This document shows, one piece after another, positions 155-30,903 of a stretch of DNA of 64,000 nucleotides. A program made the position numbers and the translations under genes. The stretch comes from Candidatus Nealsonbacteria bacterium (GTDB taxonomy: Bacteria; Patescibacteriota; Minisyncoccia; Minisyncoccales; JANBVM01), in assembly GCA_047456315.1 (NCBI GenBank), contig CP179889.1, positions 192,776 to 256,775 on the forward strand, given 5' to 3'. Within the stretch, counting starts at the first letter, position 1. Each line of letters opens with the position of its first letter. The notes under the pieces are model-generated. The model saw only the letters and a list, made by a program, of their open reading frames with translations, was not told the origin of the DNA and did not search any database.

Positions 155-1618
155 ATGGATATTCCGAAACAAGTAAAATCTATTATTGAAAAACTGGAAA
201 AAAAAGGCTTTAAGGCCCATATTGTTGGTGGTTGTGTTAGAGATTTTTTAAGAGATGTGAGACCAAACGATTGGGATATAACAACTAGCGCTAAACCAGA
301 GCAAATCCAGAAATTGTTTCCAAAGAGTTTTTATAAAAACAAGTTTTTCACTGTTACTGTTCAAACTGACAGCAAAGAGCCAGAACTAAAAGAAATTGAA
401 ATCACTACTTATCGTTTAGAAACAAAATATACTGACAAGCGCCATCCAGAACAAATCAAGTTTGCAAAAACAATTGAAGAAGATTTGGAAAGAAGAGATT
501 TTACTATTAATGCTATGGCTATTGAGTTAAAGGATAAAAAAACAAAAATCATTGACTCTTTTAATGGACAAGAAGATTTAAAAAACAAAATAATCAGAGC
601 TGTTGGAAAACCAGAGAAAAGGTTTTCAGAAGATGCTTTAAGAATGATGAGATCTGTGAGATTTGCTGCAACTTTAGGAGAAGATTTCAAGATTGAAAAA
701 AACACTGCTCAAGCTATTAAGAAAAATTCTATCTGGCTTCAGGCAATTTCAAAAGAAAGAGTCAAAGATGAGTTGATAAAAATTATAATGTCAGAACAGG
801 CTGCCAGTGGCATTGAGCTTTTAAGAGAGCTAAAGCTTTTAAAATACATTATTCCAGAATTAGAAGAGGGTTATAAGGTGGCTCAAAACAAACACCATAT
901 TTATGAGTGCTATGAACATTATATTCGTTCTTTGGATTTTGCAGCTAAAAAGGGTTTTAGCATGCATGTTAGATTGGCTGCTTTATTCCATGATATTGGC
1001 AAACCAAGGTCTAAGAGAGGAAAAGGAAAAGATGCTACATTTTATAATCATGAAATAATAGGAGCAAAAATGACACTGGAGATTTTAAATCGTTTAAAGT
1101 TTTCAAAAAAGGACATTAAAAAGATTGTTAAGCTTGTAAGGTATCATCTTTTTTATTACACACCTGAAGAGGTTGGCGAGAGCTCTGTTAGAAGACTGGT
1201 TCGTCAGGTTGGACCAGAAAATATGAAAGAGTTGCTTGAAGTGAGAATGGCTGATAGGATTGGCTCTGGAGTTCCAAAAGCTGAACCTTATAAACTGCGT
1301 CATTTAAGATATGTAATTGAGAAAGTTGCTCAAGATCCCATTTCAGCTAAAATGCTGAAAATTACTGGAAATGACATAATGGAAATTTTGAAAATAAAGC
1401 CAGGACCAGAAGTAGGACAGATACTTGATATTTTACTTGGATATATTTTAGAAGATCCTAAAAAAAATACTAAAAAGTTTTTGGAAAATGAAATTAAAAA
1501 ACTATCAAAGATGGATAAAAAAGAATTGTTGAATTTAAGTCAAAAATCAAGAAAAGAACGGGAGGAAATTGAAATGAAAAAAGATAAAATGACAAAAAAG
1601 AAGTATTGGGTAACATGA
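155..1618 (+). CDS. cca: CCA-adding enzyme / tRNA nucleotidyltransferase with HD domain
   Basis: 487-aa ORF with the class-II tRNA nucleotidyltransferase motifs GGCVRDFLRDVRPNDWDITT and RRDFTINAMA, followed by an HD-domain motif FHDIGKP. Confidence 0.85.
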   Translation: MDIPKQVKSIIEKLEKKGFKAHIVGGCVRDFLRDVRPNDWDITTSAKPEQIQKLFPKSFYKNKFFTVTVQTDSKEPELKEIEITTYRLETKYTDKRHPEQIKFAKTIEEDLERRDFTINAMAIELKDKKTKIIDSFNGQEDLKNKIIRAVGKPEKRFSEDALRMMRSVRFAATLGEDFKIEKNTAQAIKKNSIWLQAISKERVKDELIKIIMSEQAASGIELLRELKLLKYIIPELEEGYKVAQNKHHIYECYEHYIRSLDFAAKKGFSMHVRLAALFHDIGKPRSKRGKGKDATFYNHEIIGAKMTLEILNRLKFSKKDIKKIVKLVRYHLFYYTPEEVGESSVRRLVRQVGPENMKELLEVRMADRIGSGVPKAEPYKLRHLRYVIEKVAQDPISAKMLKITGNDIMEILKIKPGPEVGQILDILLGYILEDPKKNTKKFLENEIKKLSKMDKKELLNLSQKSRKEREEIEMKKDKMTKKKYWVT

Positions 1619-1620
1619 TA

Positions 1621-1691
1621 CGGGGTGTAGTATAACGGTAGTACGCGGGCATCGGGAGCTTGTGGCCTGGGTTCAATTCCCAGCACCCCGA
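1621..1691 (+). tRNA. tRNA-Pro (anticodon CGG)
   Basis: Hand-folded 71-nt cloverleaf. Acceptor CGGGGTG/CACCCCG, D arm GTAT-AACGGTA-GTAC, anticodon arm CGGGC-ATCGGGA-GCTTG (U33, CGG, G37), T arm CTGGG-TTCAATT-CCCAG, discriminator A. The 3' CCA is not encoded. Confidence 0.9.
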
Positions 1692-1693
1692 CA

Positions 1694-1764
1694 GGGCCTA
1701 TAGCTCAATGGTAGAGCGCTACATTCGCATTGTAGAAACATGAGTTCGACTCTCATTAGGTCCA
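1694..1764 (+). tRNA. tRNA-Ala (anticodon CGC)
   Basis: Hand-folded 71-nt cloverleaf. Acceptor GGGCCTA/TAGGTCC with the G3:U70 alanine identity pair, D arm GCTC-AATGGTA-GAGC, anticodon arm CTACA-TTCGCAT-TGTAG, T arm ATGAG-TTCGACT-CTCAT. CCA is not encoded. Confidence 0.9.
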
Positions 1765-2364
1765 TTAGTTTTCAGCTGAATTAAAGCTTATTATTATTCT
1801 TTGCAAGGCACTGATATTAGAAAAAACAGCTAAGATTATTATTGGATAAATTACCAGATTAATATCAAAAATTCCTAAAAACATTGAGGTTGCGATTGAA
1901 ATTACTCTTTCTGTTCTTCCAAAAAAAGCTGGCGCTGGTTTTTCCATAACCAACTCTTTTTCTTTAGCAGCTGCTTTTGCGTAAGTTGTCATCAGGCCTC
2001 CTAAAAACGACAAGCCAACCCAGATTCTGAAAGGTAAAATAAAGAATTTTAAAGGTAGAAGTAAAAACCCTAAAAGAACTATTCCATTGACATATCTGTC
2101 GCAAATAGTGTCTAGATACGCTCCTTTTTTCGAAGCTTGTCCTTTTATTCTTGCCACAGCTCCATCAATAAGATCTAGGATTCCTGCAGAAATGAAGAAT
2201 AAGAAAGCTAAAACAAAATTAAGATTGATCAGAAAATAAAAAGAAATAAAAGCAAAAACAATGCTCATTAAAGTAAACTGAGCTGGCGCTAAACCAGTTT
2301 TAGAAAATACATTTCCTAAAAAATCTTCAAGAAATTTAAATTTTTCCCTTATTTCACCCAACAT
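1765..2364 (-). CDS. CDP-alcohol phosphatidyltransferase family protein (PgsA / archaetidylinositol-phosphate-synthase-like)
   Basis: 199-aa polytopic membrane ORF with the family signature D-G-x2-A-R-x8-G-x3-D-x3-D, seen as DLIDGAVARIKGQASKKGAYLDTICDR. Confidence 0.8.
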   Translation of the reverse strand: MLGEIREKFKFLEDFLGNVFSKTGLAPAQFTLMSIVFAFISFYFLINLNFVLAFLFFISAGILDLIDGAVARIKGQASKKGAYLDTICDRYVNGIVLLGFLLLPLKFFILPFRIWVGLSFLGGLMTTYAKAAAKEKELVMEKPAPAFFGRTERVISIATSMFLGIFDINLVIYPIIILAVFSNISALQRIIISFNSAEN

Positions 2365-2367
2365 AAA

Positions 2368-3027
2368 TTATTTAAATATTTTAGATAATCTAATAATCCC
2401 TCTTTTCGTTCTTTCTGTTATTTTTTCAAAAAAGCTGAATTCTTTTCCTTTAATTTCACAGTTTTTGTTTTTTATCGCTTCTAATACCTGCTCAATTGAT
2501 AAGTCCTTTCCTGGAATTTCCAAATAGGCCCTGCCAATGAATTTTGGCTCATGGGCATCAGAGCCAGCAGTAAAAGCTAAATTATGTTTTTTTACAAACT
2601 CTTTAGCTTTTTTATTGCCAGTAAGAATAGAGGCATTAAATACTTCAATAGCATCAACTTTACCAATAAAATCTTTCAAATCTTTTTTAAAAGAATGCCA
2701 GTCGCCAAAAGGATGAGCAATAATCGCCAATCCATTTTGTTCTTTTATTTTTTCAATAGTTTTCTCTGCTGACAAACCTTTTTCAATTTCCTTTTTAACA
2801 TTTAAAGCTATTATATCTCCATCTCTGCTTTTAACCTCAATTGCTGGAATAATTAAAATTGGTTTATCTTTTGCATACTCAATTGCTTCAAATGCTCCTT
2901 GAATTTTATTATGATCAGTAATTGCTATGCAGTCTATTCCTTTTTTGATTGCAGTATCGATTATTTTCTTAATTGAAGAATCACTATCATAAGAATAATG
3001 GCTGTGGGTGTGTAAATCGCATTTCAT
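2368..3027 (-). CDS. PHP-domain metal-dependent phosphoesterase
   Basis: N-terminal MKCDLHTHSHYSYDS (the PHP H-x-H motif), internal IAITDHN and a C-terminal GSDAH motif. Confidence 0.75.
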   Translation of the reverse strand: MKCDLHTHSHYSYDSDSSIKKIIDTAIKKGIDCIAITDHNKIQGAFEAIEYAKDKPILIIPAIEVKSRDGDIIALNVKKEIEKGLSAEKTIEKIKEQNGLAIIAHPFGDWHSFKKDLKDFIGKVDAIEVFNASILTGNKKAKEFVKKHNLAFTAGSDAHEPKFIGRAYLEIPGKDLSIEQVLEAIKNKNCEIKGKEFSFFEKITERTKRGIIRLSKIFK

Positions 3028-3091
3028 TTGACCATCTTAACATAATTTTTTTATTAAACAATAAATACTGTATACTAAATACAATATACCT

Positions 3092-3649
3092 ATGTATAAA
3101 CTTATCCTGTCATCTCTTTATTTTTTTCTGCCTGCGTATTTTACCAATATGACGCCTCCTTTAGCCAAAAGATTTAGAGTTTTTGATTTTTTAGACAAAC
3201 CCATTGATTCTAATAAAACTTTCAATAATAAACCAATACTAGGAGTTCATAAAACCTGGAGGGGAATAGCAACCGGAATAATTGTCGGAATTTCGGTTGC
3301 TTGCTTACAAAAATGGCTTTATCAGTTTTCCTGGATTAAAGAGATTTCTTTTTTTGATTATGAAAGAATTAATATTTTGATTTTAGGTCTTTTACTATCT
3401 TCTGGCGCTCTTTTTGGCGACTTAATTTTTGCATTTATTAAAAGAAGATTAGGCCTGAAGCCAGGCGCAAAATTTATTCCATTTGACCAGATAAATTATG
3501 TAATAGGAGCATATATTTTCTTTTACTTGACTTCATTTTCTAAAATTGATAACTTGGTTTGGATTATACTTTTAATATTTACTTTTTTCCTTCATATCAT
3601 AGTAAATCGGTTTGGTTATCACTTGAGATTACATAAGGCAAAATGGTAA
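3092..3649 (+). CDS. carS: CDP-archaeol synthase-like protein (CarS / DUF46 family)
   Basis: 185-aa, ~5-TM ORF. LPAYFTN, ILGVHKTWRG, GALFGDLIFAFIKRRLGLKPG-x-F-x-PFDQ and a C-terminal basic ...KW end match my recollection of archaeal CarS (e.g. AF1740). It is not CdsA-like. Confidence 0.75.
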   Translation: MYKLILSSLYFFLPAYFTNMTPPLAKRFRVFDFLDKPIDSNKTFNNKPILGVHKTWRGIATGIIVGISVACLQKWLYQFSWIKEISFFDYERINILILGLLLSSGALFGDLIFAFIKRRLGLKPGAKFIPFDQINYVIGAYIFFYLTSFSKIDNLVWIILLIFTFFLHIIVNRFGYHLRLHKAKW

Positions 3650-3680
3650 GATTAAAGATTAAAATAAACACTAAAATAAT

Positions 3681-4334
3681 ATGATTCAAGAAGTAATTAC
3701 CTTAGTTTGGCAAAATATAGTTGAAGTTTCCCCTGCTATTATCGGAGGAATCCTGCTTCTATTATTTGGATTTATTATTGCTGGTTCTTTAAAGAGACTG
3801 GCGATTGCCTTTCTTAAAAGAATCAGGTTAAACCAGGTTTTAAGAAGATTGGGCCTTGATGATACTTTATCAAAAATAGATGTTCGTTTTGATGCATCTA
3901 ATTTCTTTGGAGATGTAGTTAAATGGTTTTTCATCTTCGTATTTTTAATGGCATCTTCAGAGGTAATAGGACTGACTCAATTCAGCCGATTCCTTGAAAG
4001 AGTGATTGAGTATTTTCCAAATATTTTCATTGCTTTTTTAATGTTTGTGGTTGCTGCTTTTATTGCTGATTTTTCAAAGAAGATTGTTGTTGGAACACTG
4101 GAAAAAGAAAGAATAATTTACTCCAAATTCCTTGGAAGATCAATTCATTGGGCAATATGGTTTTTTGCGCTTTTAGCTATTTTATATCAGCTTCAGATTA
4201 CTCCATCTTTAATTTTAGTAATATTTATTGGTATGGTAGCTGCCCTTTCAATTTCTGTGGGAATTGCTTTTGGTCTGGGAGGAAAAGATTTAGCTTCCAG
4301 AATCCTTAAGGAATTAGAAGAGAAATTTAAGTAA
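3681..4334 (+). CDS. Membrane protein with conserved TM-helix repeats (mechanosensitive-channel-associated type)
   Basis: 217 aa with about 5 hydrophobic helices. The repeated pattern of a TM helix followed by a basic stretch resembles the TM_helix repeat family. No catalytic motif seen. Confidence 0.4.
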   Translation: MIQEVITLVWQNIVEVSPAIIGGILLLLFGFIIAGSLKRLAIAFLKRIRLNQVLRRLGLDDTLSKIDVRFDASNFFGDVVKWFFIFVFLMASSEVIGLTQFSRFLERVIEYFPNIFIAFLMFVVAAFIADFSKKIVVGTLEKERIIYSKFLGRSIHWAIWFFALLAILYQLQITPSLILVIFIGMVAALSISVGIAFGLGGKDLASRILKELEEKFK

Positions 4335-4339
4335 GAATT

Positions 4340-6064
4340 TTGGGTTTTGTAAAAATGCAGTATCTTAGCCAAAATGATTTAAAAAAAATGATTCTCCTTT
4401 CTTATGAAAGGATTAATAAAGAAAAAGAAGCAATTAATAAAATCAATGTTTTTCCAGTGCCAGATCAGGACACTGGGAACAATGTTGAAAAAACCTTATC
4501 TGGTATTAAAAAAACAATTGAAGATAGTGATTTCGACACTTTAAGTGATTTCACAGAAGCAGTTTTAGATGGAGCTCTGACTGCTGCTCAAGGAAATGCC
4601 GGTGTGATTTATACCGGTTTTTTAGCTGGTTTTTTGCCAGAATTAACTGAAAGAATTGATGTTAATAACTTAGCGTTGGCTTTTGAGAAAGGTGCCAAAA
4701 GAGCTAAAGAAAGCATTCAAAACCCGCAACAAGGCACAATCCTGGATGTTATTGATGCTACGGCTTCAGTGTTTAAAAAAGCATCTGGCAAAGAAGATGA
4801 TATTATTTCTGTATTTGAAAAAGCAGTCAAAAATGCAGACAAAGCACTGATTGAAACTAAAGAAAAAATGGAGATTTTGAAAAAAGCAAATGTGGTTGAT
4901 GCAGGTGGCCTGGCCTTTTTAATTATTTTAGAGAGTCATTTAGAAGCTTTAAAAGGCAGGGGCGGGGAAGCAAGGCCGCAAGAAAAACCCTCAGAAAAAG
5001 TTAAAAGATTTATTCAGATTATTTCTAACCGCTACGAAGTTGTTGCTTTAATTGCAGATCCTGTTTTAGAAATAAAAAAAATAAAAGAAAGATTAGAGAA
5101 ATTAGGAAATTCTATTGATATTGTTCAGGTTAAAAACAGAGTGAAAATTCATATTCACAGCGACTATCCTGACGAGGTAAGATCTGTTTTAAAGAAAATA
5201 GGAGAAATAAAAAGTTTGAGGATTGAAGATGTGACAAAAGAAATAGTTGGAGAAGAATCGATAAGAGCTGTGTCAGTGGGGCTTGTTACTGAAAGTTCAT
5301 CAATGCTTTTGTCTAAGATTATTGAAAGATACCAGATAGAGTTAATTGATTGTGAGAAGAAATTATCAGAAGAGAAAATATCAAATCAAAACATCTTTCA
5401 AAGGTTGAGAAAAAGAAAGATAAAAATTCCTGGCTTGACTTATAGGCATTATTTGAGTACTTTTGAAAAACAACTTAAAAAATTCAGCAGTGTTTTATGC
5501 ATTGTAAGTTCATCAAAACTGTACAATTGTTATGATTTAGCAATGAAAGCAAGGTTAGCAAGCTCCAACCCCCGAAAGATATTTGTTTTTGATTCATTAA
5601 ATACAGGAACTGGTCAGGCATTAGTTGTTCTAAAATCCATTGAGCTGACACAAGAACAAAGAAGTATAGATGACATTGTAAAAAAGCTTAAAAGCTTTGT
5701 TTCTAGAATGCACCATTATGTGTTTTCTGAAAACTTTAAACAAACAACCAGAGCTGGTAAAATAAAGCTCTACCTGGTGCTGCAGGTTAAGAACGGCAAG
5801 GTTTTAAAAACAGGAGTTATCTTGGCTCAAAACAGCACTGAAGCTTTAATAAAAAAGATTTTAAAAGAGTCTAAAAAATTCAAAAAAATCAGAGTGATAT
5901 TAGGATATTCTAAAAGTATTGAGGCTGTTAAAAAAATAAAAGATGGTTTGAAATCAAAAACTAAAGCTGATATTTCTTTTATGAATTTAATGCCTTTATC
6001 TGTTACCAGTGTGATAGGGAGTCAATCTATAGCTGCGAGCTGGACAGGAATTTTAAAAAAATAA
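4340..6064 (+). CDS. DAK2-domain fusion protein (YloV / fatty-acid kinase FakA-like)
   Basis: The N-terminus has the Dak2 nucleotide-binding motif VPDQDTGNNVEKT and GNAGVIY. The C-terminal half has a DegV-like start (VGLVTESSSML). The ORF-track start is TTG 4340 and ATG 4355 (MQYLSQ...) is more likely. Confidence 0.7.
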   Translation: MGFVKMQYLSQNDLKKMILLSYERINKEKEAINKINVFPVPDQDTGNNVEKTLSGIKKTIEDSDFDTLSDFTEAVLDGALTAAQGNAGVIYTGFLAGFLPELTERIDVNNLALAFEKGAKRAKESIQNPQQGTILDVIDATASVFKKASGKEDDIISVFEKAVKNADKALIETKEKMEILKKANVVDAGGLAFLIILESHLEALKGRGGEARPQEKPSEKVKRFIQIISNRYEVVALIADPVLEIKKIKERLEKLGNSIDIVQVKNRVKIHIHSDYPDEVRSVLKKIGEIKSLRIEDVTKEIVGEESIRAVSVGLVTESSSMLLSKIIERYQIELIDCEKKLSEEKISNQNIFQRLRKRKIKIPGLTYRHYLSTFEKQLKKFSSVLCIVSSSKLYNCYDLAMKARLASSNPRKIFVFDSLNTGTGQALVVLKSIELTQEQRSIDDIVKKLKSFVSRMHHYVFSENFKQTTRAGKIKLYLVLQVKNGKVLKTGVILAQNSTEALIKKILKESKKFKKIRVILGYSKSIEAVKKIKDGLKSKTKADISFMNLMPLSVTSVIGSQSIAASWTGILKK

Positions 6065-6095
6065 AAATAATAAATACAAGATAAATTTCAACAAC

Positions 6096-7220
6096 ATGTA
6101 TATTAAAGGTGTAGGAATGACAAAATTTGATTATTCTCAAAAGCCCTGGTGGAAACAGGCCTATGAAGCAGCAATGGAAGCGCTTGAGGATTCTAAAATG
6201 AAAATCTCTCAAATTAATGGAATTGTTTTTACAGGAATGTCTAGCGCCGCTGCTGGAGAACATCAAACCCATAAAGTATCTCTTATTTCTGATTTATTTA
6301 AAACCAATGTGCCAATTATTGAGACTCCTTCAGTTTGCTCTGGCGGAGGCGTAGCAACCTGGACAGGCGCTAGATTAGGTCTTAAAAATGTTTTGGTCTT
6401 AAGTGGTGAAAGGATAGTATATAACATCAGTGAAATAACAACAGACAATATAATGTCAGCAGCTGAAAAAGTGATTGAACAGCCAGAAGGCATGCTTTTT
6501 CCTGTTCAAAATGCATTGGTCTGGCAGCAGTATATGAAAAAATATGGCGCTACAATGGATGACCTGGCTTTGATTGGTTTTAAAAATCATAAAAACGCTG
6601 TCTTAAACCCCAAAGCATATTTCTATAATCGTCCTGTTTCACTTGAACAAATAAAGAACTCACCAGTTGTCGCTTCACCTTTAAGACTGCTTGATTGTTC
6701 TTTGTCAATTAACGGGGGCGCTGCTGCTATTGTTTCTTCTGAAAAAACTGACATTGAAATTATTGGCTCTGGTTTTGCCACTGATTATCTTTTAACTTTC
6801 TTGCGTGATGACATCACTCATTTTAAAGCAACAAGATTAGCAGCAAAACAAGCGTTTGAAGAAGCAAAGTTAAAGCCAAGTGATATTGATGTGGCTGAGA
6901 TCCATGATGCTTTTACTTCTGTAGAACTATTCTCTTATGAGGACTTAGGATTTGCGCCAGTTGGTAAAGGAAGAGAACTGATAAGGTCAGGTAAAATAGA
7001 CTTGGATGGTGAAATGCCGGTTAATTCTTCAGGAGGATTAAAAGCAAAAGGCCATCCCATATCAGTAACAGGGCTGGCCCAGATATATGAAATAGTAAAT
7101 CAGTTAAGAGGTAAATGCGATAAAAGACAAGTAAGTCCAGTTCCTAAAATCGGGCTTTGCCACAACATAGGTGGATCAGGAGGGAGTGTTACCGTCCATA
7201 TTTTTAAAAGAATTACTTAG
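6096..7220 (+). CDS. Thiolase-superfamily condensing enzyme (archaeal-type acetyl-CoA acetyltransferase-like)
   Basis: 374 aa. Active-site Cys context ETPSVCSGGG, His context KAKGHPISVTGLAQ, and the C-terminal CHNIGGSGGS typical of thiolases. Length and N-terminus (MYIKGVGMTKF) fit the short archaeal/SCP-x-like clade. Confidence 0.75.
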   Translation: MYIKGVGMTKFDYSQKPWWKQAYEAAMEALEDSKMKISQINGIVFTGMSSAAAGEHQTHKVSLISDLFKTNVPIIETPSVCSGGGVATWTGARLGLKNVLVLSGERIVYNISEITTDNIMSAAEKVIEQPEGMLFPVQNALVWQQYMKKYGATMDDLALIGFKNHKNAVLNPKAYFYNRPVSLEQIKNSPVVASPLRLLDCSLSINGGAAAIVSSEKTDIEIIGSGFATDYLLTFLRDDITHFKATRLAAKQAFEEAKLKPSDIDVAEIHDAFTSVELFSYEDLGFAPVGKGRELIRSGKIDLDGEMPVNSSGGLKAKGHPISVTGLAQIYEIVNQLRGKCDKRQVSPVPKIGLCHNIGGSGGSVTVHIFKRIT

Positions 7221-7719
7221 TTTCAAATTTTTCCAAAAGATCTTTTAAGTCTTTTTTAACTTTTTCTGAAGATTCAATTATACCAATTCCTTTATCTGGC
7301 AAGCCATAAATTATTGCAGTTCCTTTTTCAGAAAGCAAAACAGCAGGAATAACCAGCAGGTCTTCCTCTCCTTCAACAAAAATGTTTTTTTCTTCTTTGA
7401 TTGCCTGGTCAACAATCTGCCAAACCTCAGCATTGATAACGCCAGCAGGATTAGAGCATTCCAGAGAGAAAGGTAGGATATTTTCAACTGGCTCTCTCTT
7501 TATCTTGCCGTCAAAAATCTTGACATCAGAAGGAAGGGCCAAAGAACAATAATCACCTACTGTAATTACTTTTTTGAATCCTTTTTCTTTGATAAATTTC
7601 TGGCACTTTTTAAAAACTTCATTATTTTTGCCAAAAATGGCTGTTCCCCAAATCTTTTTTAATTCCGGCTTGAGCTTTTCGGGCAAATAATATGTTTTTG
7701 TAATTTTTTCAAAATTCAT
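7213..7719 (-). CDS. DUF359 protein (archaeal-type GTP-dependent dephospho-CoA kinase family)
   Basis: 168 aa. VITVGDYCS...VKIFDGKIKRE and VEGEEDLLVIPAVLLSEKGTAIIYGLPDKGIGII match the DUF359 hallmarks (VGD, IvDgk-x-R, GEEDLL, YGqP-x-G). Confidence 0.7.
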   Translation of the reverse strand: MNFEKITKTYYLPEKLKPELKKIWGTAIFGKNNEVFKKCQKFIKEKGFKKVITVGDYCSLALPSDVKIFDGKIKREPVENILPFSLECSNPAGVINAEVWQIVDQAIKEEKNIFVEGEEDLLVIPAVLLSEKGTAIIYGLPDKGIGIIESSEKVKKDLKDLLEKFETK

Positions 7720-7761
7720 ATAATTTATAATTATACATTATTCATTATTATCTAACATATC

Positions 7762-8820
7762 ATGGCTTTTTTTCAATGTCCCAAATGTAAAAATAAATGG
7801 CAGCATAATATCAGTAAATGTCCTGATTGTTTTTTAGATGTCAAAAGATTAAAAAGCAGAAAGATTAAAGTGATTGGTATCAGTGAGATTAAAATCCCAG
7901 CTATTTTACATCTTAAAACGCCTTATTTTGTTTTGGTTTTGGAAGATGAGCAAGGCAACCGTTGGACGCAGAAATCTATTAAAGAGTACAAGATTAATGA
8001 TGAATTTAGTATTAAGCCTTCCCATAATAAAAAAGCTGTGTCTTTATGGAAAGTAAAGTACGATATTTTAGAGGCAATTGAAAAAACCATTGAATTGCTT
8101 GGGGGATTAGAAATCAACAAAGGTTCTAAGATTCTGATTTTGCCTACATTAATATCTGCCAAACATCCTCATTTTGCTGATAATACAACCCCTGAATTTT
8201 TGGAAGCCGCAATTAAATTTTTGGTTCAATGCGGGGCTGATTTAAAAAACATTAAAATAGCTGGTCAAAGTTTTAATGACGTGTTGATTGAAGCTTCAGC
8301 TCAAAAATCTCAGATTTTAAATATTGCCTTAAAATACAAAATAGCTGTTTTAAATTTAGCAAAAACCAAATTTATTAAAAAAGAAATAAATGGCTTAACT
8401 GTTCAGATTTCAGAACAAGCATTTAAAAATGATTTAATAATCAATCTGCCAAAATTAAAGCTGGATCCGCAAGTAATAATCAAAGGCGCAACTAATAATA
8501 TTTTAACCCTGCTGGATAAAAAATCCCACCTTTCTTTAAAAGATAATAATTACGAAAGAGTGCTTAAGAAAATAAATGAAGTTTTGCCAGAATATTTAAG
8601 TTTGGCTGAAGGGATATCAATTCAAAGAAGTGATAAAATCGTAGTATCTTTGGGGTTGGCTTTTGCCAGTTTTAATTCTTTAAACCTGGATAGAATCTTT
8701 GCTGAAATTGCAATTATCAAAAATTTGCCAGAATATTTAAAAGATATTAAAATTGAACATATTCCAACGACAGGAAGGCATCCAGAAGAATTACAATATA
8801 ATGTAGAAAAGATTTACTAA
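7762..8820 (+). CDS. Zn-ribbon/OB (DUF35-like) N-terminal domain fused to a DUF362-like domain
   Basis: The N-terminus CPKC-x13-CPDC is followed by an OB-like segment (KTPYFVLVLEDEQGNRW), as in the DUF35 partners of archaeal thiolases. The remainder (ILILPTLISAKHPHFADNTTPEFLEAAIKFLVQCGA) resembles DUF362. The C-terminal assignment is tentative. Confidence 0.4.
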   Translation: MAFFQCPKCKNKWQHNISKCPDCFLDVKRLKSRKIKVIGISEIKIPAILHLKTPYFVLVLEDEQGNRWTQKSIKEYKINDEFSIKPSHNKKAVSLWKVKYDILEAIEKTIELLGGLEINKGSKILILPTLISAKHPHFADNTTPEFLEAAIKFLVQCGADLKNIKIAGQSFNDVLIEASAQKSQILNIALKYKIAVLNLAKTKFIKKEINGLTVQISEQAFKNDLIINLPKLKLDPQVIIKGATNNILTLLDKKSHLSLKDNNYERVLKKINEVLPEYLSLAEGISIQRSDKIVVSLGLAFASFNSLNLDRIFAEIAIIKNLPEYLKDIKIEHIPTTGRHPEELQYNVEKIY

Positions 8821-8824
8821 AATT

Positions 8825-8878
8825 ATGAAAGGAAAAACAGTTTCAATAACAGGTTCGTTTCAGGGAATAGAAAAACAG
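8825..8878 (+). repeat. Copy A of a ~54-bp direct repeat (fabG 5' end)
   Basis: ATGAAAGGAAAAACAGTTTCAATAACAGGTTCGTTTCAGGGAATAG... versus 9421 ATGAAAGGAAAAACAGCTTTAATAACAGGTTCATCTCAGGGGATAG.... The first 16 nt are identical and only about 6 of the first ~47 nt are mismatches. Confidence 0.85.
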
Positions 8879-9421
8879 ATTATTCTAACTAAAAGCATTG
8901 TTCAAATTTTGGGCTTTGCTGTTTTAACTGGAATAAGTGCTGGATTAAAACTTGAAATAGGGGCTGTTCCAGTGACTGCCCAAACGCTGATTGTTTTATT
9001 GAGCGGGGCTTTATTAGGAAGCAAGAAGGGGGCTTTATCTCAATTTACTTATTTAGCCGGAGGACTGATTGGATTTCCTTGGTTTTCTCGCGGAGGAGGA
9101 ATGGTTTATATTATGAGCCCTACTTTTGGTTATATTTTAGGTTTTGTATTAGCATCTTATTTCACTGGTTTGTTATTTGAAAAGGGCTGGGATAAAGAAA
9201 TTAAAAAATCTGTCTTAGTATTGCTAATTGCAAGTTTTGCTATTTATATTCCTGGGCTTCTGTGGCTGGCAAGATTTATTGGATTTTCAAAAATTTTGAC
9301 AGTTGGCTTCTACCCTTTTGTTATAGGAGATATATTAAAGATATCTCTAGTTGCGCTAATTTTATCTTTCAGTTTAAAACAAAAAAAAGTGGAAAGTTTA
9401 AATAATTTAGAAATCAAATAA
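8825..9421 (+). CDS. bioY: Biotin transporter BioY
   Basis: 198-aa, 5-6-TM ORF with VPVTAQTLIVLLSGALLGSKKGALSQ...GGLIGFPWFSRGGG...PTFGYILGF, the classical BioY core. The first ~17 codons duplicate the fabG start (see findings). Confidence 0.8.
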   Translation: MKGKTVSITGSFQGIEKQIILTKSIVQILGFAVLTGISAGLKLEIGAVPVTAQTLIVLLSGALLGSKKGALSQFTYLAGGLIGFPWFSRGGGMVYIMSPTFGYILGFVLASYFTGLLFEKGWDKEIKKSVLVLLIASFAIYIPGLLWLARFIGFSKILTVGFYPFVIGDILKISLVALILSFSLKQKKVESLNNLEIK

Positions 9422-9474
9422 TGAAAGGAAAAACAGCTTTAATAACAGGTTCATCTCAGGGGATAGGAAAAGCA
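9421..9474 (+). repeat. Copy B of the ~54-bp direct repeat (authentic fabG start)
   Basis: See copy A. This copy encodes MKGKTALITGSSQGIGKA, an intact Rossmann TGxxxGIG motif. Confidence 0.85.
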
Positions 9475-10158
9475 ATTGCTATCAAGCTTGGCGTCTTAGG
9501 CGTAAACATTGCCTTAAATGATATTGCACCCCAAGAAGAGAGCTTAAAAGAATTAAAATCTCAGATTGAGGCTCAAGGAGTTAGAGTTCAGTATTTTTTA
9601 GCTGATGTTTCAAAGCTGGAAGAGACCCATAAAATGGCTGAAAAAATAAAACAAGAATTTGGAGGGTTAGATATTTTAGTCAACAATGCTGGAATAACAA
9701 AAGACAGAACGCTTCTGAAAATGACCAAAGATGAATGGCAAAGAGTGATTGACGTTGATTTAACAGGAGTATTTAATGTAACTAAATCATGCCTGCCTTT
9801 AATTATTGCCAGTAAAGGGAAGATAGTGAATATTTCTTCAGTAATAGGACAGCGTGGAAATTTTGGCCAGACAAACTACGGAGCTGCTAAGGCCGGAGTA
9901 ATTGGTTTTACAAAATCCTTAAGCAAAGAAGTTGGTAAATTCAATGTTAATGTTAATGCAATTACGCCTGGTTTTATTGAAACACGGCTGACAAATAAAG
10001 TCCCTCTTCAATTTAAACTAATGCTTAAAAAATTGACTGCTTTGGGAAGATTTGGAAAACCAGAGGAAGTAGCAGATTTGGTGGCATTTTTATGCTCAAA
10101 TGAAGCCAGTTTCATAACCGGAGCAGTAATTAATATTGATGGAGGGTTGTCAATTTAA
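9421..10158 (+). CDS. fabG: 3-oxoacyl-(acyl-carrier) reductase FabG (classical SDR)
   Basis: TGSSQGIGKA, NNAG, the S...YGAAK catalytic motif and the C-terminal FITGAVINIDGG. Confidence 0.85.
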   Translation: MKGKTALITGSSQGIGKAIAIKLGVLGVNIALNDIAPQEESLKELKSQIEAQGVRVQYFLADVSKLEETHKMAEKIKQEFGGLDILVNNAGITKDRTLLKMTKDEWQRVIDVDLTGVFNVTKSCLPLIIASKGKIVNISSVIGQRGNFGQTNYGAAKAGVIGFTKSLSKEVGKFNVNVNAITPGFIETRLTNKVPLQFKLMLKKLTALGRFGKPEEVADLVAFLCSNEASFITGAVINIDGGLSI

Positions 10159-11648
10159 TGATGAAAAAAAACCAAATTAAAAAAATTATTCCTTATGATG
10201 AACCCTTTTTATGGGTTGATGAGATAGAAAGCATTTCAGCAAGAACTATTGTTGGTTATAAGGATACGTCAAAGAATGACCCTCACTTCAAGGGGCACTT
10301 TGTTGGGTTTCCAATTATGCCAGGAGTATTGGTTATTGAAGGAATAGCCCAAACAGCAACAATTCTTTTACGTACAAAGATTGGTTCTTCCCATAAGAAT
10401 AAGCACATGTTGGCATATCAGGTCAGAAGCGCTTTTTTTTATGAGCCCATTTTTCCTGAGCAAAAGATAAAGTATAAAGTCCAGCTTTTGGGTTTTTATG
10501 GCGATAAACTTGCTAATTTTAAAGGAGAGGCCTTTGTTGATGATAAAAGAAAGTGTGAAGTAAGATTTAGCATTGCAATTGTAGATAAAGATGATTTTAA
10601 AAAAAAGTTCTTGGAAAAACACAGCAGGCCTGTTCCTCAAACCAAACTCCCTCCTTTAAAAATTGGAAATCTTTTTACTAAAATTCCAATAATTCAAGGA
10701 GGTATGGCAGTAAGAGTGTCTCTTCATAATTTAGCTGGTAATGTGGCAAAAAATGGAGCAGTAGGTATTATTGCTGTTTCAGGAATGAATGATCCGAATG
10801 AAGTTAAATCAGAAATTAGAAAAGCCAGAAAAATTGCCGGATCAAATGGATTAATTGGAATCAATATTATGGGTGTGATAGGTCGTTTTACTGAACTGCT
10901 TGAGGCAGCCATGGAAGAGAAAATTGATTTAGTTATTCAGGGAGCAGGATTCAGAACAGATATCTTTGAAATGGGCAGGAAATATAATATTCCAATATTC
11001 TCAATGGCTTCATCTGTTAAGGTTGCTAAAAAGGGTGAAGCAATGGGAGCTGTGGCAGTGGTGGTTGAGGGAAAAGATGCTGGAGGCCATCTGGGGTTTC
11101 CAAAAGGCCATGCTTTTAGGAAAACCATTGACATTCTTAAAGACGTGGTAAAAGAAGTAAAAATACCAATAATTGCTGCTGGAGGAATATTCGATGGAAA
11201 AGATATTGTAGAAATGTTGAGAGCAGGTGCAAAAGGGGTTCAAATGGCAACAAGGTTTGTAACGACAAAAGAATGTGATGTCCATGACAATTTCAAGCAA
11301 GCTCACTTAAAAGCTAAGAAAGAGGATGTTGTAATAATTCATTCTCCTGTTGGGCTGCCTGGCAGAGCAATCAAGAATTCTTTTGTCAAAAAAATCCTGG
11401 AAGGCAAAGCCCCGAAACCAGACCCTTTAAAATGCCAGGGATGCATAGGAATGGCCTGTGATAAGAGCTATTGTATTTTAGATGCTTTAGAAAAAGCCAG
11501 AAAAGGAGATATAGAGAACGGGCTTATCTTTGCTGGTTCAAACGTCTGGAGAGTTAATAAAATAACCACTGTCAAAAAACTGCTTGAAGAATTGGTCGAA
11601 GAAGCAAATGAAATTTTAAAGAATAAACCTTTATTAATTAATGACTGA
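10158..11648 (+). CDS. Fusion of a FabZ-type beta-hydroxyacyl dehydratase and an FMN-dependent enoyl reductase (FabK / nitronate-monooxygenase family)
   Basis: aa ~10-150 carry the hotdog-fold FabZ motifs PYDEPFLWVDE and PHFKGHFVGFPIMPGVLVIEGIAQ. aa ~175-496 form a TIM-barrel NMO/FabK-like domain (PIIQGGMAVRVS, VVVEGKDAGGH, IIAAGGIFDG, GVQMATRF). Confidence 0.75.
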   Translation: MMKKNQIKKIIPYDEPFLWVDEIESISARTIVGYKDTSKNDPHFKGHFVGFPIMPGVLVIEGIAQTATILLRTKIGSSHKNKHMLAYQVRSAFFYEPIFPEQKIKYKVQLLGFYGDKLANFKGEAFVDDKRKCEVRFSIAIVDKDDFKKKFLEKHSRPVPQTKLPPLKIGNLFTKIPIIQGGMAVRVSLHNLAGNVAKNGAVGIIAVSGMNDPNEVKSEIRKARKIAGSNGLIGINIMGVIGRFTELLEAAMEEKIDLVIQGAGFRTDIFEMGRKYNIPIFSMASSVKVAKKGEAMGAVAVVVEGKDAGGHLGFPKGHAFRKTIDILKDVVKEVKIPIIAAGGIFDGKDIVEMLRAGAKGVQMATRFVTTKECDVHDNFKQAHLKAKKEDVVIIHSPVGLPGRAIKNSFVKKILEGKAPKPDPLKCQGCIGMACDKSYCILDALEKARKGDIENGLIFAGSNVWRVNKITTVKKLLEELVEEANEILKNKPLLIND

Positions 11649-12585
11649 TTATATGCTTGGCTCTAAATTAACTAAATTATTAGGAATTAAATACCCGATA
11701 ATTCAGGGGGCAATGGCTGGAATATCAGATTCTGTGTTAGTTTCAGCTGTTTCAAACGCCGGGGGATTAGGAGTTATTGGCGCTGGTTTTTTATCTGCTC
11801 AGTGGCTGGAGGAAGAGATTGACAAGACTAAAAAATTAACTGATAAACCTTTTGCAGTTAATTTAATGCTCCAGAATTCAAACATACCAAAACTGATAGA
11901 AATAATAATTGAAAAGAAGGTGCCTATTATTTCAACTGGAGGAGGAAATCCCCTGCCTTTAATCCCGCATTTAAAAAGAGCAGGAATTAAAATTATGACT
12001 GTGGTTGCATTAACAAGATTAGCCAAGAAAATGAAAGAAAGCGATGTTGATGTTATTGTGGTGGAAGGAATGGAATCAGGCGGTCATATTGGCAAGAAAA
12101 CAACGCTTAGCTTGGTGCCTCAGGCAAAGAAAGTACTGGAGAATACTCCTTTGGTTGCAGCTGGAGGTATTTATGATGGAAAAACAGCAGCAGCAATGTT
12201 TGTGTTGGGAGCTGATGGAGTTCAGATGGGGACCAGATTTTTAGCAAGCAAAGAGTGTGATATTAATAAGGATTATAAAGCTGCGATATTAAATGCAACT
12301 GATGAAGATATAATTACAGTGGGAGAATTTACTGGTCATCCAGTAAGATTAATAAAAAATGAATTAACTGAAAAAGTTAAGAAATTAGAGGAAAAAAATC
12401 CTTTTCCTGAAGAAGTGAGAGCTGATGCTTATTCTTCTTCAAAATTATTAAATACTGATATTAATCAGGCTCCTCTTCTGGCCGGGCTCTGTGCCGGAGA
12501 CATTAAAGAGATTAAAACCTGTAAAGAGATTATAGAAGAAACAATAAAGGAAGCTGAAAAGATTCTAAGAGGGACAAGGTTATAA
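11641..12585 (+). CDS. fabK: Enoyl-(acyl-carrier) reductase II FabK (NMO family)
   Basis: IKYPIIQGAMAGISDSVLVSAVSNAGGLGVIGAG, VVEGMESGGHIG, AAGGIYDG and GVQMGTRF. Confidence 0.8.
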   Translation: MTDYMLGSKLTKLLGIKYPIIQGAMAGISDSVLVSAVSNAGGLGVIGAGFLSAQWLEEEIDKTKKLTDKPFAVNLMLQNSNIPKLIEIIIEKKVPIISTGGGNPLPLIPHLKRAGIKIMTVVALTRLAKKMKESDVDVIVVEGMESGGHIGKKTTLSLVPQAKKVLENTPLVAAGGIYDGKTAAAMFVLGADGVQMGTRFLASKECDINKDYKAAILNATDEDIITVGEFTGHPVRLIKNELTEKVKKLEEKNPFPEEVRADAYSSSKLLNTDINQAPLLAGLCAGDIKEIKTCKEIIEETIKEAEKILRGTRL

Positions 12586-12598
12586 CAGACAAATTATA

Positions 12599-13279
12599 AT
12601 GAACAGACTAGTTTCTTGGTTTTGTAAAATTTTTATTGCTCCAATTGTTAAACTTCTTTTTATTAAAAGAGTTAAAGGATGGGAAAACATTCCCAAAACG
12701 AACTTTATTTTAGCATCAAATCATGAAAGCCATCTGGATTGGATAATTGATGGCTATATTTGTGTTCCCAGGAGATTTCATTTTATTGGCCAGACCGACC
12801 AGTATGGCGGATTAATAAAACTATCTCTCTATGTTATGTACTTTCTTGCTGGAGTCATTCGCTTGAACAGAAAAAGTAAAGAATCAAAGAAAAAAATGTT
12901 CGAAGAAGCAATTAAAAGCTTAAAGATGGGAGATTGTTTAATAATTTATCCAGAAGGAACAAGAACCAGAACTGGCCGGATAGGAAAGGGAAGATATGGA
13001 GTAGCTAGGATGGTTTTAGAATCAGGAAAGCCGATCTTGCCAATGGCAATTAAAGGAACTTTTGAGCTTCTCCCTCCGAAAAGCAGACCTAAAGCAAATA
13101 AGATAAAAAGAATTGTTGAAATTAATATTGGTAAACCTCTTTATTTTAATAATGAATACGAAAAAGCAAAAAGCCTTGATAATGATTCAGAGCAATATAA
13201 GTTATTGCTTTCTGAGATTACCAGTAAAATGATGGATAAGATTATTTTTTTAAGATCAGAACTAGATTCAGGAAAATGA
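12599..13279 (+). CDS. plsC: 1-acyl-sn-glycerol-3-phosphate acyltransferase (PlsC family)
   Basis: NHESHLDW (the H-x4-D motif) and IYPEGTRTRTG. Confidence 0.75.
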   Translation: MNRLVSWFCKIFIAPIVKLLFIKRVKGWENIPKTNFILASNHESHLDWIIDGYICVPRRFHFIGQTDQYGGLIKLSLYVMYFLAGVIRLNRKSKESKKKMFEEAIKSLKMGDCLIIYPEGTRTRTGRIGKGRYGVARMVLESGKPILPMAIKGTFELLPPKSRPKANKIKRIVEINIGKPLYFNNEYEKAKSLDNDSEQYKLLLSEITSKMMDKIIFLRSELDSGK

Positions 13280-13917
13280 AAACAAGTTTTATTTATTTCT
13301 GTAAATATATATCTTCTCCTATTATTGAAAGGTTTTTTTTGGAAAAAATAGAAGGAAAAGAAAATATTCCCAGCACTAATTTTATTCTTGCTCCAAATCA
13401 TCTTGACGGAAAAGATCACTGGCTTCTTATGGTTTTATTGAAAGAGAGATTGAAAAATGTTCGTTTTGTTGGAGCAATGGACAGTTTAAAAACCTTGTTT
13501 ATGTCAACAATGCTTTATTATTTTGCAAATACAATCAAGGTAAACAGAAGAACAGTAAACAGAGAGATTTTTTTAACCAAGCTGGCTAAAAGCGTGAAAG
13601 AAAATAAAATTATAGTTATTTATCCTGAAGGCGACAGTAATAATAAAAAATATCTTTTAAAAGGTAAAACAGGTATAGCAGAATTAACTCTTAGAACAGG
13701 CATTCCAGTCGTTCCAGTAGGAATAAGGGCAGTTAATAATTCCTTTAAAAGAATAATAACAGTAGGCAGGCCACTTGACTATTTGAAAGAAAGAGAGATG
13801 ATGAAAAAGGTTAAAGACAATCATCAGGAATACAGCTTACTGCTGCGAAAAATAACAGATGATATAATGCAGAAAATATCTAAATTATCTCAAAAACCCT
13901 ATCAATATGCAGATTAA
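13276..13917 (+). CDS. Second PlsC-family lysophospholipid acyltransferase (divergent)
   Basis: Paralogous layout with PNHLDGKDHW and IYPEGDSNN. The catalytic block is less canonical. Confidence 0.55.
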   Translation: MKTSFIYFCKYISSPIIERFFLEKIEGKENIPSTNFILAPNHLDGKDHWLLMVLLKERLKNVRFVGAMDSLKTLFMSTMLYYFANTIKVNRRTVNREIFLTKLAKSVKENKIIVIYPEGDSNNKKYLLKGKTGIAELTLRTGIPVVPVGIRAVNNSFKRIITVGRPLDYLKEREMMKKVKDNHQEYSLLLRKITDDIMQKISKLSQKPYQYAD

Positions 13918-15439: not shown

Positions 15440-15442
15440 TTT

Positions 15443-16344: not shown

Positions 16345-16349
16345 TATTT

Positions 16350-25776: not shown

Positions 25777-25837
25777 TTTTTATGAATAAATCTATGAAAA
25801 AATCGCTTAAGAGGCAGTTTTTTAGTAGGATAAAGAT

Positions 25838-26410: not shown

Positions 26411-26511
26411 TGTTATTTGTTTGACTTAGGGTAAGTTTAGAGAAAGATTAGCAATATGATTTCATCAAACAGGTTCTAACCTCGTCCAGCCCCCGGACCC
26501 AAAATTAAAAA

Positions 26512-26535
26512 GCCCATTGTCCTGGGCATTTTTTA
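26512..26535 (+). terminator. Putative intrinsic terminator
   Basis: GCCCA (26512-16), loop TTGTCC, TGGGC (26523-27), followed by ATTTTTTAATTT. Confidence 0.45.
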
Positions 26536-26553
26536 ATTTAAATCTTTTTAAAT

Positions 26554-27393: not shown

Positions 27394-27460
27394 AATTAGT
27401 TGTTTTATATATTTAACTAATAGACAAAACTTTTCTGGAGAGTGAATATATAATCTACAA

Positions 27461-28522: not shown

Positions 28523-28530
28523 ATTATCTT

Positions 28531-30890: not shown

Positions 30891-30903
30891 TCTGTAATAA
30901 TAG

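Follow-up and report, generated by a model that had tools for sequence, protein, structure and literature searches.

The stretch analysed here (the window) comprises 64,000 nucleotides of the chromosome of a Candidatus Nealsonbacteria bacterium, a tiny symbiont of the Patescibacteria (contig CP179889.1, positions 192,776 to 256,775). Near its left end, it encodes a 185-amino acid (aa) homologue of the archaeal CDP-archaeol synthase CarS, divergent from a PHP phosphoesterase and a CDP-alcohol transferase. On balance, though by no means with certainty, this CarS-like protein takes the place of the CDP-diacylglycerol (CDP-DAG) synthase CdsA in a bacterial acyl/glycerol-3-phosphate (G3P) pathway, together with a PHP protein as candidate phosphatase and a transferase that resembles the synthases of phosphatidylinositol phosphate (PIP) and archaetidylinositol phosphate (AIP). 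The locus is organised as follows:

1621-1764, plus strand: tRNA-Pro and tRNA-Ala, adjoining the transferase stop codon
1765-2364, minus strand: CDP-alcohol transferase open reading frame (ORF), 199 aa
2368-3027, minus strand: PHP phosphoesterase ORF, 219 aa
3028-3091: divergent PHP/CarS intergenic region, 64 bp, AT-rich (18.8% GC)
3092-3649, plus strand: CarS-like ORF, 185 aa

Three nucleotides (AAA) lie between the PHP and transferase genes, and CarS, PHP and transferase all have 30-32% GC (window: 32.8%). The 64-bp region is presumably a bidirectional promoter region; a scan of positions 1500-4500 for consensus promoters and terminators gave 14 sites (11.9 expected, i.e. not above chance) and none in the 64-bp spacer.

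The CarS-like ORF encodes a true cytidylyltransferase of the CarS family and not a CdsA-type enzyme. In Pfam, it scored 117.2 bits with the CarS family PF01864 (E 1e-33; cut-off 22), residues 1-185 aligning with positions 1-175 of the 175-position profile, and 33.8 bits with bacterial CdsA (PF01148), over residues 53-130 only. The NCBIfam CarS equivalog NF003114 matched end-to-end with 145.2 bits, narrowly under its cut-off of 148, and the E. coli-type CdsA model NF008635 gave 15.9 bits (cut-off 385). The motifs HKTWRG (residues 53-58), GDLIFAFIKRRLG (109-121) and FDQ (131-133) align with GD...KRRLG...DQ of A. pernix CarS (ApCarS, 5GUF) and with GD...KR...DR of E. coli CdsA. G109-D110, K117-R118-R119 and D132-Q133 are invariant in an alignment of CarS sequences (A1; 45 invariant columns), D110 and D132 being the equivalents of the Asp dyad, and the CTP-dependent Asp-dyad chemistry is presumably common to archaeal CarS and the CarS-like protein. 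ApCarS was the sole PDB sequence match. The AlphaFold2 (AF2) model (pLDDT 87.5) consists of five long helices and contains neither the N-terminal nor the dimerisation domain of CdsA; with Foldseek, it was superposed on 5GUF (E 1.8e-5, TM-score 0.72/0.84, root-mean-square deviation 2.1 Å), the next match being T. maritima CdsA (TmCdsA) with a TM-score of 0.42. The NCBI annotation of the exact protein is already 'CDP-archaeol synthase'. An earlier note on this DNA had read the three genes as an 'activate, transfer, dephosphorylate' head-group module of archaeal ancestry: the coordinates, 64-bp divergent spacer, 3-nt gap and motifs that it quoted were all retrieved from the sequence, and its preference for a CarS-type over a CdsA-type enzyme agrees with the HMMER comparison (PF01864 ahead of PF01148), the length, the five-helix topology and the fold.

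CarS, PHP and the transferase form the left end of a lipid supercluster of about 17 kb that the earlier note had overlooked. Downstream of the CarS-like gene, the supercluster contains the following genes:

3681-4334, plus strand: TM217, a 217-aa membrane protein with conserved transmembrane (TM) helix repeats (PF05552, 43.1 bits)
4340-6064, plus strand: fusion of FakA (Dak2 and middle domain) to DegV/FakB (PF02734, PF21645, PF02645; YloV 248 bits, FakA 132 bits)
6096-7220, plus strand: archaeal-type thiolase
7213-7719, minus strand: DUF359, dephospho-CoA-kinase-like (best NCBIfam match: archaeal GTP-dependent dephospho-CoA kinase)
7762-8820, plus strand: DUF362
8825-9421, plus strand: BioY
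9421-10158, plus strand: FabG-like SDR
10158-11648, plus strand: fusion of FabA/Z to an enoyl-reductase-like NMO
11641-12585, plus strand: second NMO
12599-13279, plus strand: first PlsC-type acyltransferase (PF01553, 82.6 bits)
13276-13917, plus strand: second PlsC-type acyltransferase (PF01553, 79.3 bits)
13907-15439, plus strand: biotin carboxylase of an acyl-CoA carboxylase set
15443-15826, plus strand: BCCP
15826-16344, plus strand: biotin ligase
16350-17900, plus strand: carboxyltransferase
17897-18580, plus strand: PlsY, acyl-phosphate:G3P acyltransferase (PF02660, 111.4 bits; TIGR00023, 99.4 bits, cut-off 137.2)

No acyl carrier protein (ACP) or ketoacyl-ACP synthase was found in the window beside the block 6096-17900, which fits the ACP-independent type of fatty-acid/CoA synthesis proposed for Nealsonbacteria (PMC7242380). 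In some Nealsonbacteria, the pathways for fatty acids and phospholipids are nearly complete, with PlsY and PlsC and without PlsX or ACP; because PlsX is absent, the source of the acyl-phosphate was left open (Probst et al., 2020, PMC7242380). The FakA-DegV fusion is a fatty-acid kinase and the probable supplier of this acyl-phosphate to PlsY. In bacteria, FakA/FakB, PlsY and PlsC lead from free fatty acid to phosphatidic acid built on sn-glycerol-3-phosphate; a CDP-DAG synthase is needed next, and the CarS-like protein is the sole candidate in sight. The CDP-activation step is not mentioned by Probst et al. (2020), and no CdsA/CarS table is included in the supplements of that study.

The distribution of the CarS-like gene was determined with a pattern scan in which each species was represented by a single genome; relatives were detected in at least 162 species. 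From the 162 genomes with a relative, 80 were retained for the analysis of loci, nearly all of them Patescibacteria/Paceibacteria. Most carriers come from groundwater or sediment and have no known archaeal host; the methanogen parasite Ca. Microsyncoccus archaeolyticus (locus L073) is also among them. All ORFs of the 80 species-level loci were clustered without preconceptions, and the neighbours of CarS were as follows:

TM217: immediately downstream of CarS in 55 of the 78 loci that had room, without exception on the CarS strand, at a median distance of 36 nt
FakA/DegV: 48 of 81 loci (101 ORFs)
PHP: 44 loci; the divergent gene immediately upstream of CarS in 35 of 78, and downstream on the CarS strand in 3
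PlsY within 6 kb: 32 loci (56 ORFs), paralogues being common
Transferase: 31 loci, adjoining PHP in nearly all

Three architectures were distinguished. The Nealsonbacteria type is that of the window. In the Minisyncoccales type, which includes L073, the genes PlsY-CarS-TM217-FakA-DegV-DegV-PlsY-PlsY lie on one strand and PlsY directly flanks CarS. In the higher-GC type, PHP is divergent from CarS-TM217, a nucleotide-kinase-like gene follows TM217, and the vicinity lacks a transferase. The linkage survives rearrangement: PHP and the transferase lie on the opposite side of CarS, beside the acyltransferases, in L055, L062 and L072. A sporadic recent transfer of the CarS-like gene is ruled out by its host-like GC content, its orthologues in at least 162 species and its conserved neighbours. 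In L018 (2073-3379), L022 and L023, uppS directly adjoins CarS, in reversed order compared to E. coli uppS-cdsA (L088, 404-2035).

Several features of the patescibacterial loci were recorded separately. Of all neighbours of CarS in Patescibacteria, TM217 is the most constant; it is absent from the outside contexts, DPANN included, and might act as a CarS partner. Two to three PlsY paralogues surround CarS, with no PlsC-type gene within 6 kb, in L058, L060, L065, L067, L069-L071, L073, L078 and L080-L081. In such Minisyncoccales-type loci, a PlsY paralogue might carry out the second acylation with acyl-phosphate, or lyso-lipids might be made; lyso-lipids were reported to be enriched in fractions of the candidate phyla radiation (CPR). 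A P-loop kinase of about 190 aa follows CarS (with or without TM217) in the higher-GC loci L026, L027, L031, L034, L036, L037 and L044-L046. Its best NCBIfam match is PRK08356, it is weakly similar to archaeal (d)CMP kinase, and its role might be to recycle CMP set free in the CDP-alcohol transferase reaction. Two records titled 'Candidatus Pacearchaeota archaeon' (L036, L049) carry a Patescibacteria-type CarS: L049 has PlsY and DegV, and the gene order of L036 is that of Patescibacteria loci. Many metagenome-assembled genomes titled 'Candidatus Saccharibacteria' group with Paceibacteria. These Pacearchaeota and Saccharibacteria titles are probably mislabelled.

Canonical CdsA was searched with phmmer (--max, E. 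coli CdsA as query) in every stop-to-stop ORF of 959 kb (window and 87 loci): only CarS ORFs were retrieved, at 19.6 bits or less, and none of the window ORFs was a CdsA. A regular expression for the canonical CdsA signature, a crude test superseded by phmmer, gave no match. No G1P dehydrogenase (G1PDH), GGGPS or DGGGPS/UbiA was found in the window and the 7 kb upstream, where all ORFs of 110 aa or more were considered. CdsA is presumably absent from the remainder of the genome as well. If a canonical cdsA were encoded elsewhere and made the bulk of the CDP-DAG, the CarS-like protein would be redundant or accessory and would serve a minor or specialised lipid. The searched sequence represents about 11% of the chromosome, and E. 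coli itself has two CdsA-type enzymes. However, this genome is tiny (676 kb), CarS is located inside the PlsY/FakA/FakB string of the Minisyncoccales-type loci, no CdsA was found in the 959 kb around CarS in 87 loci, and CarS is as strongly conserved as its 45 invariant columns in A1 indicate. An accessory role is therefore regarded as unlikely.

Relatives outside Patescibacteria were collected with a profile search of 1.84 billion representatives, which yielded 2,164 clusters at E ≤ 1e-3. The named Patescibacteria sequences (81/81) formed a single tight group. Four named relatives lie outside Patescibacteria and all are archaeal (Nanoarchaeota, Ca. Nanoarchaeia, Nanobdellota and 'archaeon'), the closest named relatives of the Patescibacteria CarS being DPANN archaea. 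The sampled outside contexts were as follows:

L083, DPANN archaeon (Spt4, S24e, S27e, P0, Rpr2): PHP with PHP_C, on the CarS strand and with an overlap of 13 nt with CarS
L086, Nanobdellota: Psd, serine-type transferase, DUF212-CarS fusion
L089: Psd, serine-type transferase, CarS
L091, 'archaeon': serine-type transferase, CarS, DedA/VTT
L087, bacterial-looking: AIP-synthase-like transferase (159.8 bits), divergent from PHP, a gene of unknown family, CarS and HAD
L090, bacterial (WhiB, PlsC-type, BipA): tight operon of PIP/AIP-synthase-like transferase, PHP and CarS

The L083 PHP is 35% identical to that of the window (E 5e-37), and the L090 PHP was confirmed by hhalign (99.7%, E 3e-25). CarS adjoins a CDP-alcohol transferase in 5/6 of these contexts, and the two are a widely conserved pair. 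Some CarS relatives (P0146, P0175, P0243, P0261) are N-terminally fused to lipid-phosphatase domains, either PAP2 or DUF212, a divergent PAP2; in the Nanobdellota locus L086, the DUF212-CarS fusion (6001-7023) follows Psd and the serine-type transferase in one operon.

The superfamily of CTP transferases includes dolichol-/phytol-kinase-like enzymes, and the CarS-like protein could be such a CTP-dependent lipid kinase, acting on polyprenol or diacylglycerol. The uppS gene next to CarS in some loci and the PAP2 phosphatases fused to relatives would suit that activity. This is highly improbable given the end-to-end match to the CarS equivalog almost at threshold (145.2 of 148 bits), the CarS fold, and the CDP-alcohol transferase, an enzyme that needs a CDP-lipid, beside CarS in five of the six outside contexts.

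The three-gene module of the earlier note is upheld by this comparison: its linkage was kept through the rearrangements in L055, L062 and L072, it recurs in L087 and L090, and PHP and CarS form an operon in L083. The tie between PHP and CarS, which that note had missed, is at least as tight as that between PHP and the transferase. As for ancestry, an archaeal origin of the CarS-like gene is plausible from the sequences, four of the four named outside relatives being archaeal; this view rests on distribution and named nearest relatives and not on a rooted tree, and the tree leaves the sister group open. The tree was built by neighbour-joining from 84 sequences and 181 columns and was rooted on partial ApCarS. 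CarS and PHP were probably acquired together from DPANN-like archaea by the ancestor of the clade and have been inherited vertically since; we infer the direction of this transfer.

The CarS-like protein most likely makes CDP-DAG rather than CDP-archaeol, a prediction from context, because its neighbours are bacterial and neither CdsA nor isoprenoid genes were found in the window. A change of chain specificity would be needed in the CarS-like protein if its substrate is diacyl, as characterised CarS enzymes reject phosphatidic acid. Methanothermobacter membranes discriminate by chain type, and not between ester and ether or between glycerol-1-phosphate (G1P) and G3P. In published lipidomics, the lipids of CPR-size cells were all acylglycerols (PMC7242380), and E. 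coli lysate supports Nealsonbacteria growth, which its authors took as ruling out a need for archaeal lipids. Together with the acyl-phosphate/G3P context (FakA-DegV, PlsY, PlsC) and the lack of G1PDH, GGGPS and DGGGPS genes in the window, the acylglycerol composition tells against the isoprenoid lipids that the earlier note had entertained with reference to the lipid divide.

Alternatively, CarS may have kept its archaeal specificity: archaetidic acid or a lipid like digeranylgeranylglyceryl phosphate (DGGGP) from an archaeal host, several of these episymbionts living on methanogens, would be activated, given a new head group and dephosphorylated, resulting in a bacterial membrane with archaeal ether lipids. 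The closest relatives by name or by profile are archaeal for all three proteins (CarS, AIP-synthase-like transferase, PHP), Ca. M. archaeolyticus (L073) is a carrier, Nealsonbacteria attach to Methanothrix, characterised CarS enzymes reject diacyl phosphatidic acid, and genome-reduced archaea retain CarS and CDP-alcohol transferases without isoprenoid synthesis, which was read as head-grouping of acquired lipid. Against this stand the constant neighbours FakA/DegV and PlsY, which build an acyl-G3P lipid, the absence of a known archaeal host for most carriers, the acylglycerols of the CPR-size fraction, the growth on E. coli lysate and the lack of any archaetidic-acid route encoded nearby, which together make retained specificity quite unlikely. 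It is likewise improbable that the specificity was kept or only broadened in archaeon-attached Patescibacteria (methanogen-attached Nealsonbacteria and Ca. M. archaeolyticus, for example) that would re-head-group isoprenoid ether lipids of the host into mixed archaeal/bacterial membranes, with PHP, which DPANN archaea also have, as AIP phosphatase.

The transferase scored 57.8 bits with CDP-OH_P_transf (PF01066). The best NCBIfam model was AIP synthase (AIPS, NF040950; 109.3 bits, cut-off 180), followed by PIP synthase (PIPS, NF045883; 64.9 bits, cut-off 170), both far above pgsA (20.5 and 27.8 bits) and pssA. PDB sequence matches were restricted to mycobacterial PIPS (6H53/6H5A), Renibacterium PIPS, AF2299 and DIPP synthase, with no PgsA or PssA among them. 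The motif D-x2-D-G-x2-A-R...G-x3-D-x3-D of CDP-alcohol transferases is complete (D64, D67, G68, A71, R72, G81, D85, D89), and the Mg ligands D64, D67, D85 and D89 are invariant across 28 orthologues. Residues of the inositol-1-phosphate (I1P) pocket of M. tuberculosis PIPS (R94, S132, Y133, K135, R137', R152, R155 and R195; PMC9385802) were mapped on the window transferase and its 28 orthologues: seven of eight contacts are kept in 28/28 (R90, T127 for S132, Y128, K130, R150, R153 and R189). By these sequence criteria, the transferase belongs to the inositol-phosphate-transferring, AIPS/PIPS-like branch. Its acceptor would be a phosphorylated alcohol, with 1L-myo-inositol-1-phosphate as the best guess and glycerol phosphate as the alternative. 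The need for a phosphatase after the transfer, as claimed in the earlier note, follows from this branch and the kept I1P contacts, because such a transferase makes a phosphorylated head group.

With glycerol phosphate as acceptor, the module would consist of a phosphatidylglycerol phosphate (PGP) synthase and a PGP phosphatase, and would make phosphatidylglycerol (PG), the commonest bacterial anionic lipid. The transferase is below both the AIPS and the PIPS cut-off, SaPgsA binds G3P via Lys/Arg at similar positions, and no inositol-phosphate synthase (MIPS) was found in the window, in the 7 kb upstream or in the conserved neighbour clusters of the CarS loci. PG synthesis is nevertheless the doubtful option: AIPS and PIPS scores (109 and 65 bits) far exceed those of pgsA, the PDB sequence matches are all inositol-phosphate enzymes, and T127, Y128, K130, R150, R153 and R189 match the I1P pocket.

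PHP is a soluble protein that matched PF02811 (56.5 bits), PF13263 (PHP_C, 57.6 bits) and the NCBIfam CehA/McbA metallohydrolase domain (90.8 bits, cut-off 80). The complete PHP metal-binding set is there (H6, H8, H39, E64, H105, D157, H159), each ligand with a conservation of 93% or more across 46 sequences. At the C-terminus, the orthologues have in common an amphipathic, basic helix in which one arginine is nearly invariant. In the fold comparison (AF2 model, pLDDT 96.9), the closest structures were the uncharacterised TM0559 (best) and BVU_3505, then RNase AM, EndoQ and pAp phosphatase; the best matches are structural-genomics proteins, and the comparison does not fix the substrate. No PgpA-family domain was detected in the three proteins with Pfam and NCBIfam. 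PHP is a candidate head-group phosphatase, for PIP/AIP or PGP, because it lies 3 nt from the transferase, tracks the transferase type and has a parallel in the CarS-PAP2 fusions of relatives. In six informative arrangements (3 vs 3), PHP is found beside CarS with inositol-phosphate-type transferases (window type, L087, L090) and is absent with serine-type transferases (L086, L089, L091). The only experimentally assigned PIP phosphatase is the PgpA-family BT_1525 of Bacteroides, and the PIP phosphatase of archaea and most bacteria was called unidentified in a 2022 review (PMC9385802). PHP as PIP phosphatase would therefore be a non-homologous replacement of the PgpA-type enzyme.

With CarS and the transferase acting as in the main reading, PHP could instead serve CarS directly, by hydrolysis of pyrophosphate, which would pull the reaction, or of a nucleotide or the CDP-lipid (CMP/pAp-type), with the head group dephosphorylated by another enzyme, e.g. 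a HAD-IB hydrolase. PHP is tied to CarS without a nearby transferase in L083 and nine Patescibacteria loci, its nearest characterised folds are nucleotide/RNA phosphoesterases, a HAD-IB hydrolase is encoded near the transferase in many loci, and a PAP2/DUF212 phosphatase is fused to CarS even beside a serine-type transferase (L086). This arrangement is considered rather doubtful, given the association of PHP with inositol-phosphate-type and not serine-type transferases and the gap of only 3 nt between PHP and the transferase in the window; moreover, PAP2 enzymes such as PgpB are PGP phosphatases. We also know of no PHP enzyme established as an inorganic pyrophosphatase.

A 427-aa PHP-like gene overlapping CarS in L063 and L068 was at first a candidate for PHP-CarS linkage and was not counted: it encodes a full-length homologue of Endonuclease Q (4703-5986; 165 bits to Pyrococcus EndoQ, 5ZB8), and its stop codon overlaps the CarS start. 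EndoQ is best known from archaea, yet it is encoded on these Patescibacteria contigs.

With CarS in the place of CdsA, phospholipid synthesis in this organism would proceed as follows. FakA-DegV would phosphorylate free fatty acids that are scavenged or come from the neighbouring ACP-independent synthesis genes, PlsY would transfer the acyl-phosphate to G3P (giving 1-acyl-G3P), and the PlsC-type acyltransferases would complete phosphatidic acid. The CarS-like protein would convert phosphatidic acid and CTP to CDP-DAG and pyrophosphate. The AIPS/PIPS-like transferase would then replace CMP with a phosphorylated polyol, most likely 1L-myo-inositol-1-phosphate (giving PIP, or PGP with glycerol phosphate), and PHP would remove the terminal phosphate to yield phosphatidylinositol (PG if the acceptor is glycerol phosphate).

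Several points weigh against this pathway. Archaeal CarS, when purified, has a strong preference for DGGGP over phosphatidic acid, and it fails to complement an E. coli cdsA mutant (PMC9385802), and no specificity change is discernible in the sequence of the CarS-like protein. The transferase is under both equivalog cut-offs (AIPS, 109 vs 180; PIPS, 65 vs 170) and has lost the inositol-phosphate contact R137 (A132), which makes the alcohol uncertain. The nearest characterised PHP structures (RNase AM, pAp phosphatase, EndoQ) act on nucleotides or nucleic acids and not on lipids, L083 and nine higher-GC Patescibacteria loci have PHP paired with CarS and lack a transferase within 6-8 kb, and the HAD-IB hydrolase near the transferase in many loci (TIGR01490, 133.8 bits; weak PgpC similarity) is a rival phosphatase. 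The CarS tree is weak: Patescibacteria monophyly was recovered in 104/200 bootstraps and the sister group was not resolved. Finally, the searches for cdsA, inositol-phosphate synthase and isoprenoid genes covered about 71 kb of the 676-kb chromosome.

The locus was compared to characterised systems. With archaeal CarS (PF01864; A. fulgidus CarS; 5GUF), it shares the family, length, five-helix fold and motifs (KT-x-x-G, GD...KRR, DQ), as well as a neighbouring CDP-alcohol transferase, found in many archaeal relatives; it differs in its bacterial host, in the acyl-phosphate/G3P genes that replace GGGPS/DGGGPS and in its probable substrate, diacyl phosphatidic acid. CdsA (PF01148; T. maritima, 4Q2E/4Q2G; E. 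coli) has a distantly related catalytic C-terminal domain and catalyses the reaction proposed here (phosphatidic acid + CTP -> CDP-DAG + pyrophosphate), and the uppS adjacency of some CarS loci is typical of cdsA; however, CdsA is a protein of about 270-285 aa with 9 TM helices, whereas the CarS-like protein has 185 aa, 5 TM helices and no N-terminal or dimerisation domains (TM-score 0.42). As in the two-step inositol lipid pathway (Mycobacterium PgsA1, Methanothermobacter AIPS, BT_1523/BT_1525), the transferase is of the inositol-phosphate branch with an I1P pocket, and a phosphatase gene is immediately adjacent, as in the Bacteroides BT_1523-BT_1525 cluster. Unlike in that pathway, the phosphatase belongs to PHP and not to the PgpA family, no inositol-phosphate synthase is encoded nearby and the donor is provided by CarS and not CdsA. 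The clustering of FakA, DegV/FakB, PlsY and PlsC with CDP-activation recalls the Firmicutes route for incorporation of exogenous fatty acids, FakA/FakB -> PlsY -> PlsC -> CdsA; here FakA and FakB are fused, CarS replaces CdsA, two to three PlsY paralogues are present in related loci, and PlsX and ACP are absent (PMC7242380). Genome-reduced archaea (DPANN; Panguiarchaeum, with CarS and PgsA/PssA and without isoprenoid synthesis) have similar CarS-transferase operons (L086, L089, L091) and the PHP-CarS pair of L083, and also a symbiotic, lipid-scavenging lifestyle. Their lipid cores are presumably archaeal, whereas the module described here is wired to bacterial acylation genes.

In literature searches, no paper discussing CarS in CPR, Patescibacteria or Parcubacteria was found; CarS is not treated by Coleman et al. 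(2019), and Kuroda (2024) contains no discussion of lipids. The gene is annotated and, as far as found, had not been discussed; the new elements are the proposed takeover of the CdsA step by CarS across a bacterial clade and a candidate non-homologous PIP/AIP phosphatase.

The remainder of the window contains a defence/mobile island, a sigma factor, a large wall protein, a polysaccharide cluster and MurB. The following features were recorded:

23251-32118: defence/mobile island, with an 841-aa N6-methylase carrying an HSDR_N domain and several small ORFs without family
26554-27393: tyrosine integrase (island)
28633-29439: AbiTii (island)
29475-30149: DUF4145 (island)
31330-32118: SocA/Panacea antitoxin-like HTH protein (island)
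34764-38849, plus strand: 1361-aa ORF, in the highest-GC stretch of the window (about 40% vs 33%)
38948-60224: polysaccharide cluster, with several GT4 glycosyltransferases, epimerases/dehydratases (one fused to GT4, 46367-48454), a DegT aminotransferase, methyltransferases, a deacetylase, a flippase, a Bac_transf initiating transferase and a Wzy-like polymerase with TPR repeats
60250-61947, plus strand: 565-aa ORF

For the 1361-aa and the 565-aa ORF, the sole match was to a peptidoglycan-binding family, weak and under the threshold in each case. Both are otherwise unannotated and probably encode proteins of the surface or wall.

CarS and CdsA count among the enzymes said to 'uphold the lipid divide', each rejecting the lipid of the other domain (PMC9385802). 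A CarS wired into FakA/FakB-PlsY-PlsC across a bacterial clade is a natural experiment on this rule: if it has switched to diacyl phosphatidic acid, comparison of the Patescibacteria and DPANN sequences could reveal the determinants of chain specificity, and the alternative outcome, in which the patescibacterial carriers handle archaeal lipids, would also be informative. The linkage of PHP nominates a protein of this family for the PIP/AIP phosphatase step. More broadly, the locus bears on how membranes are built by CPR bacteria, which are usually described as unable to make lipids.

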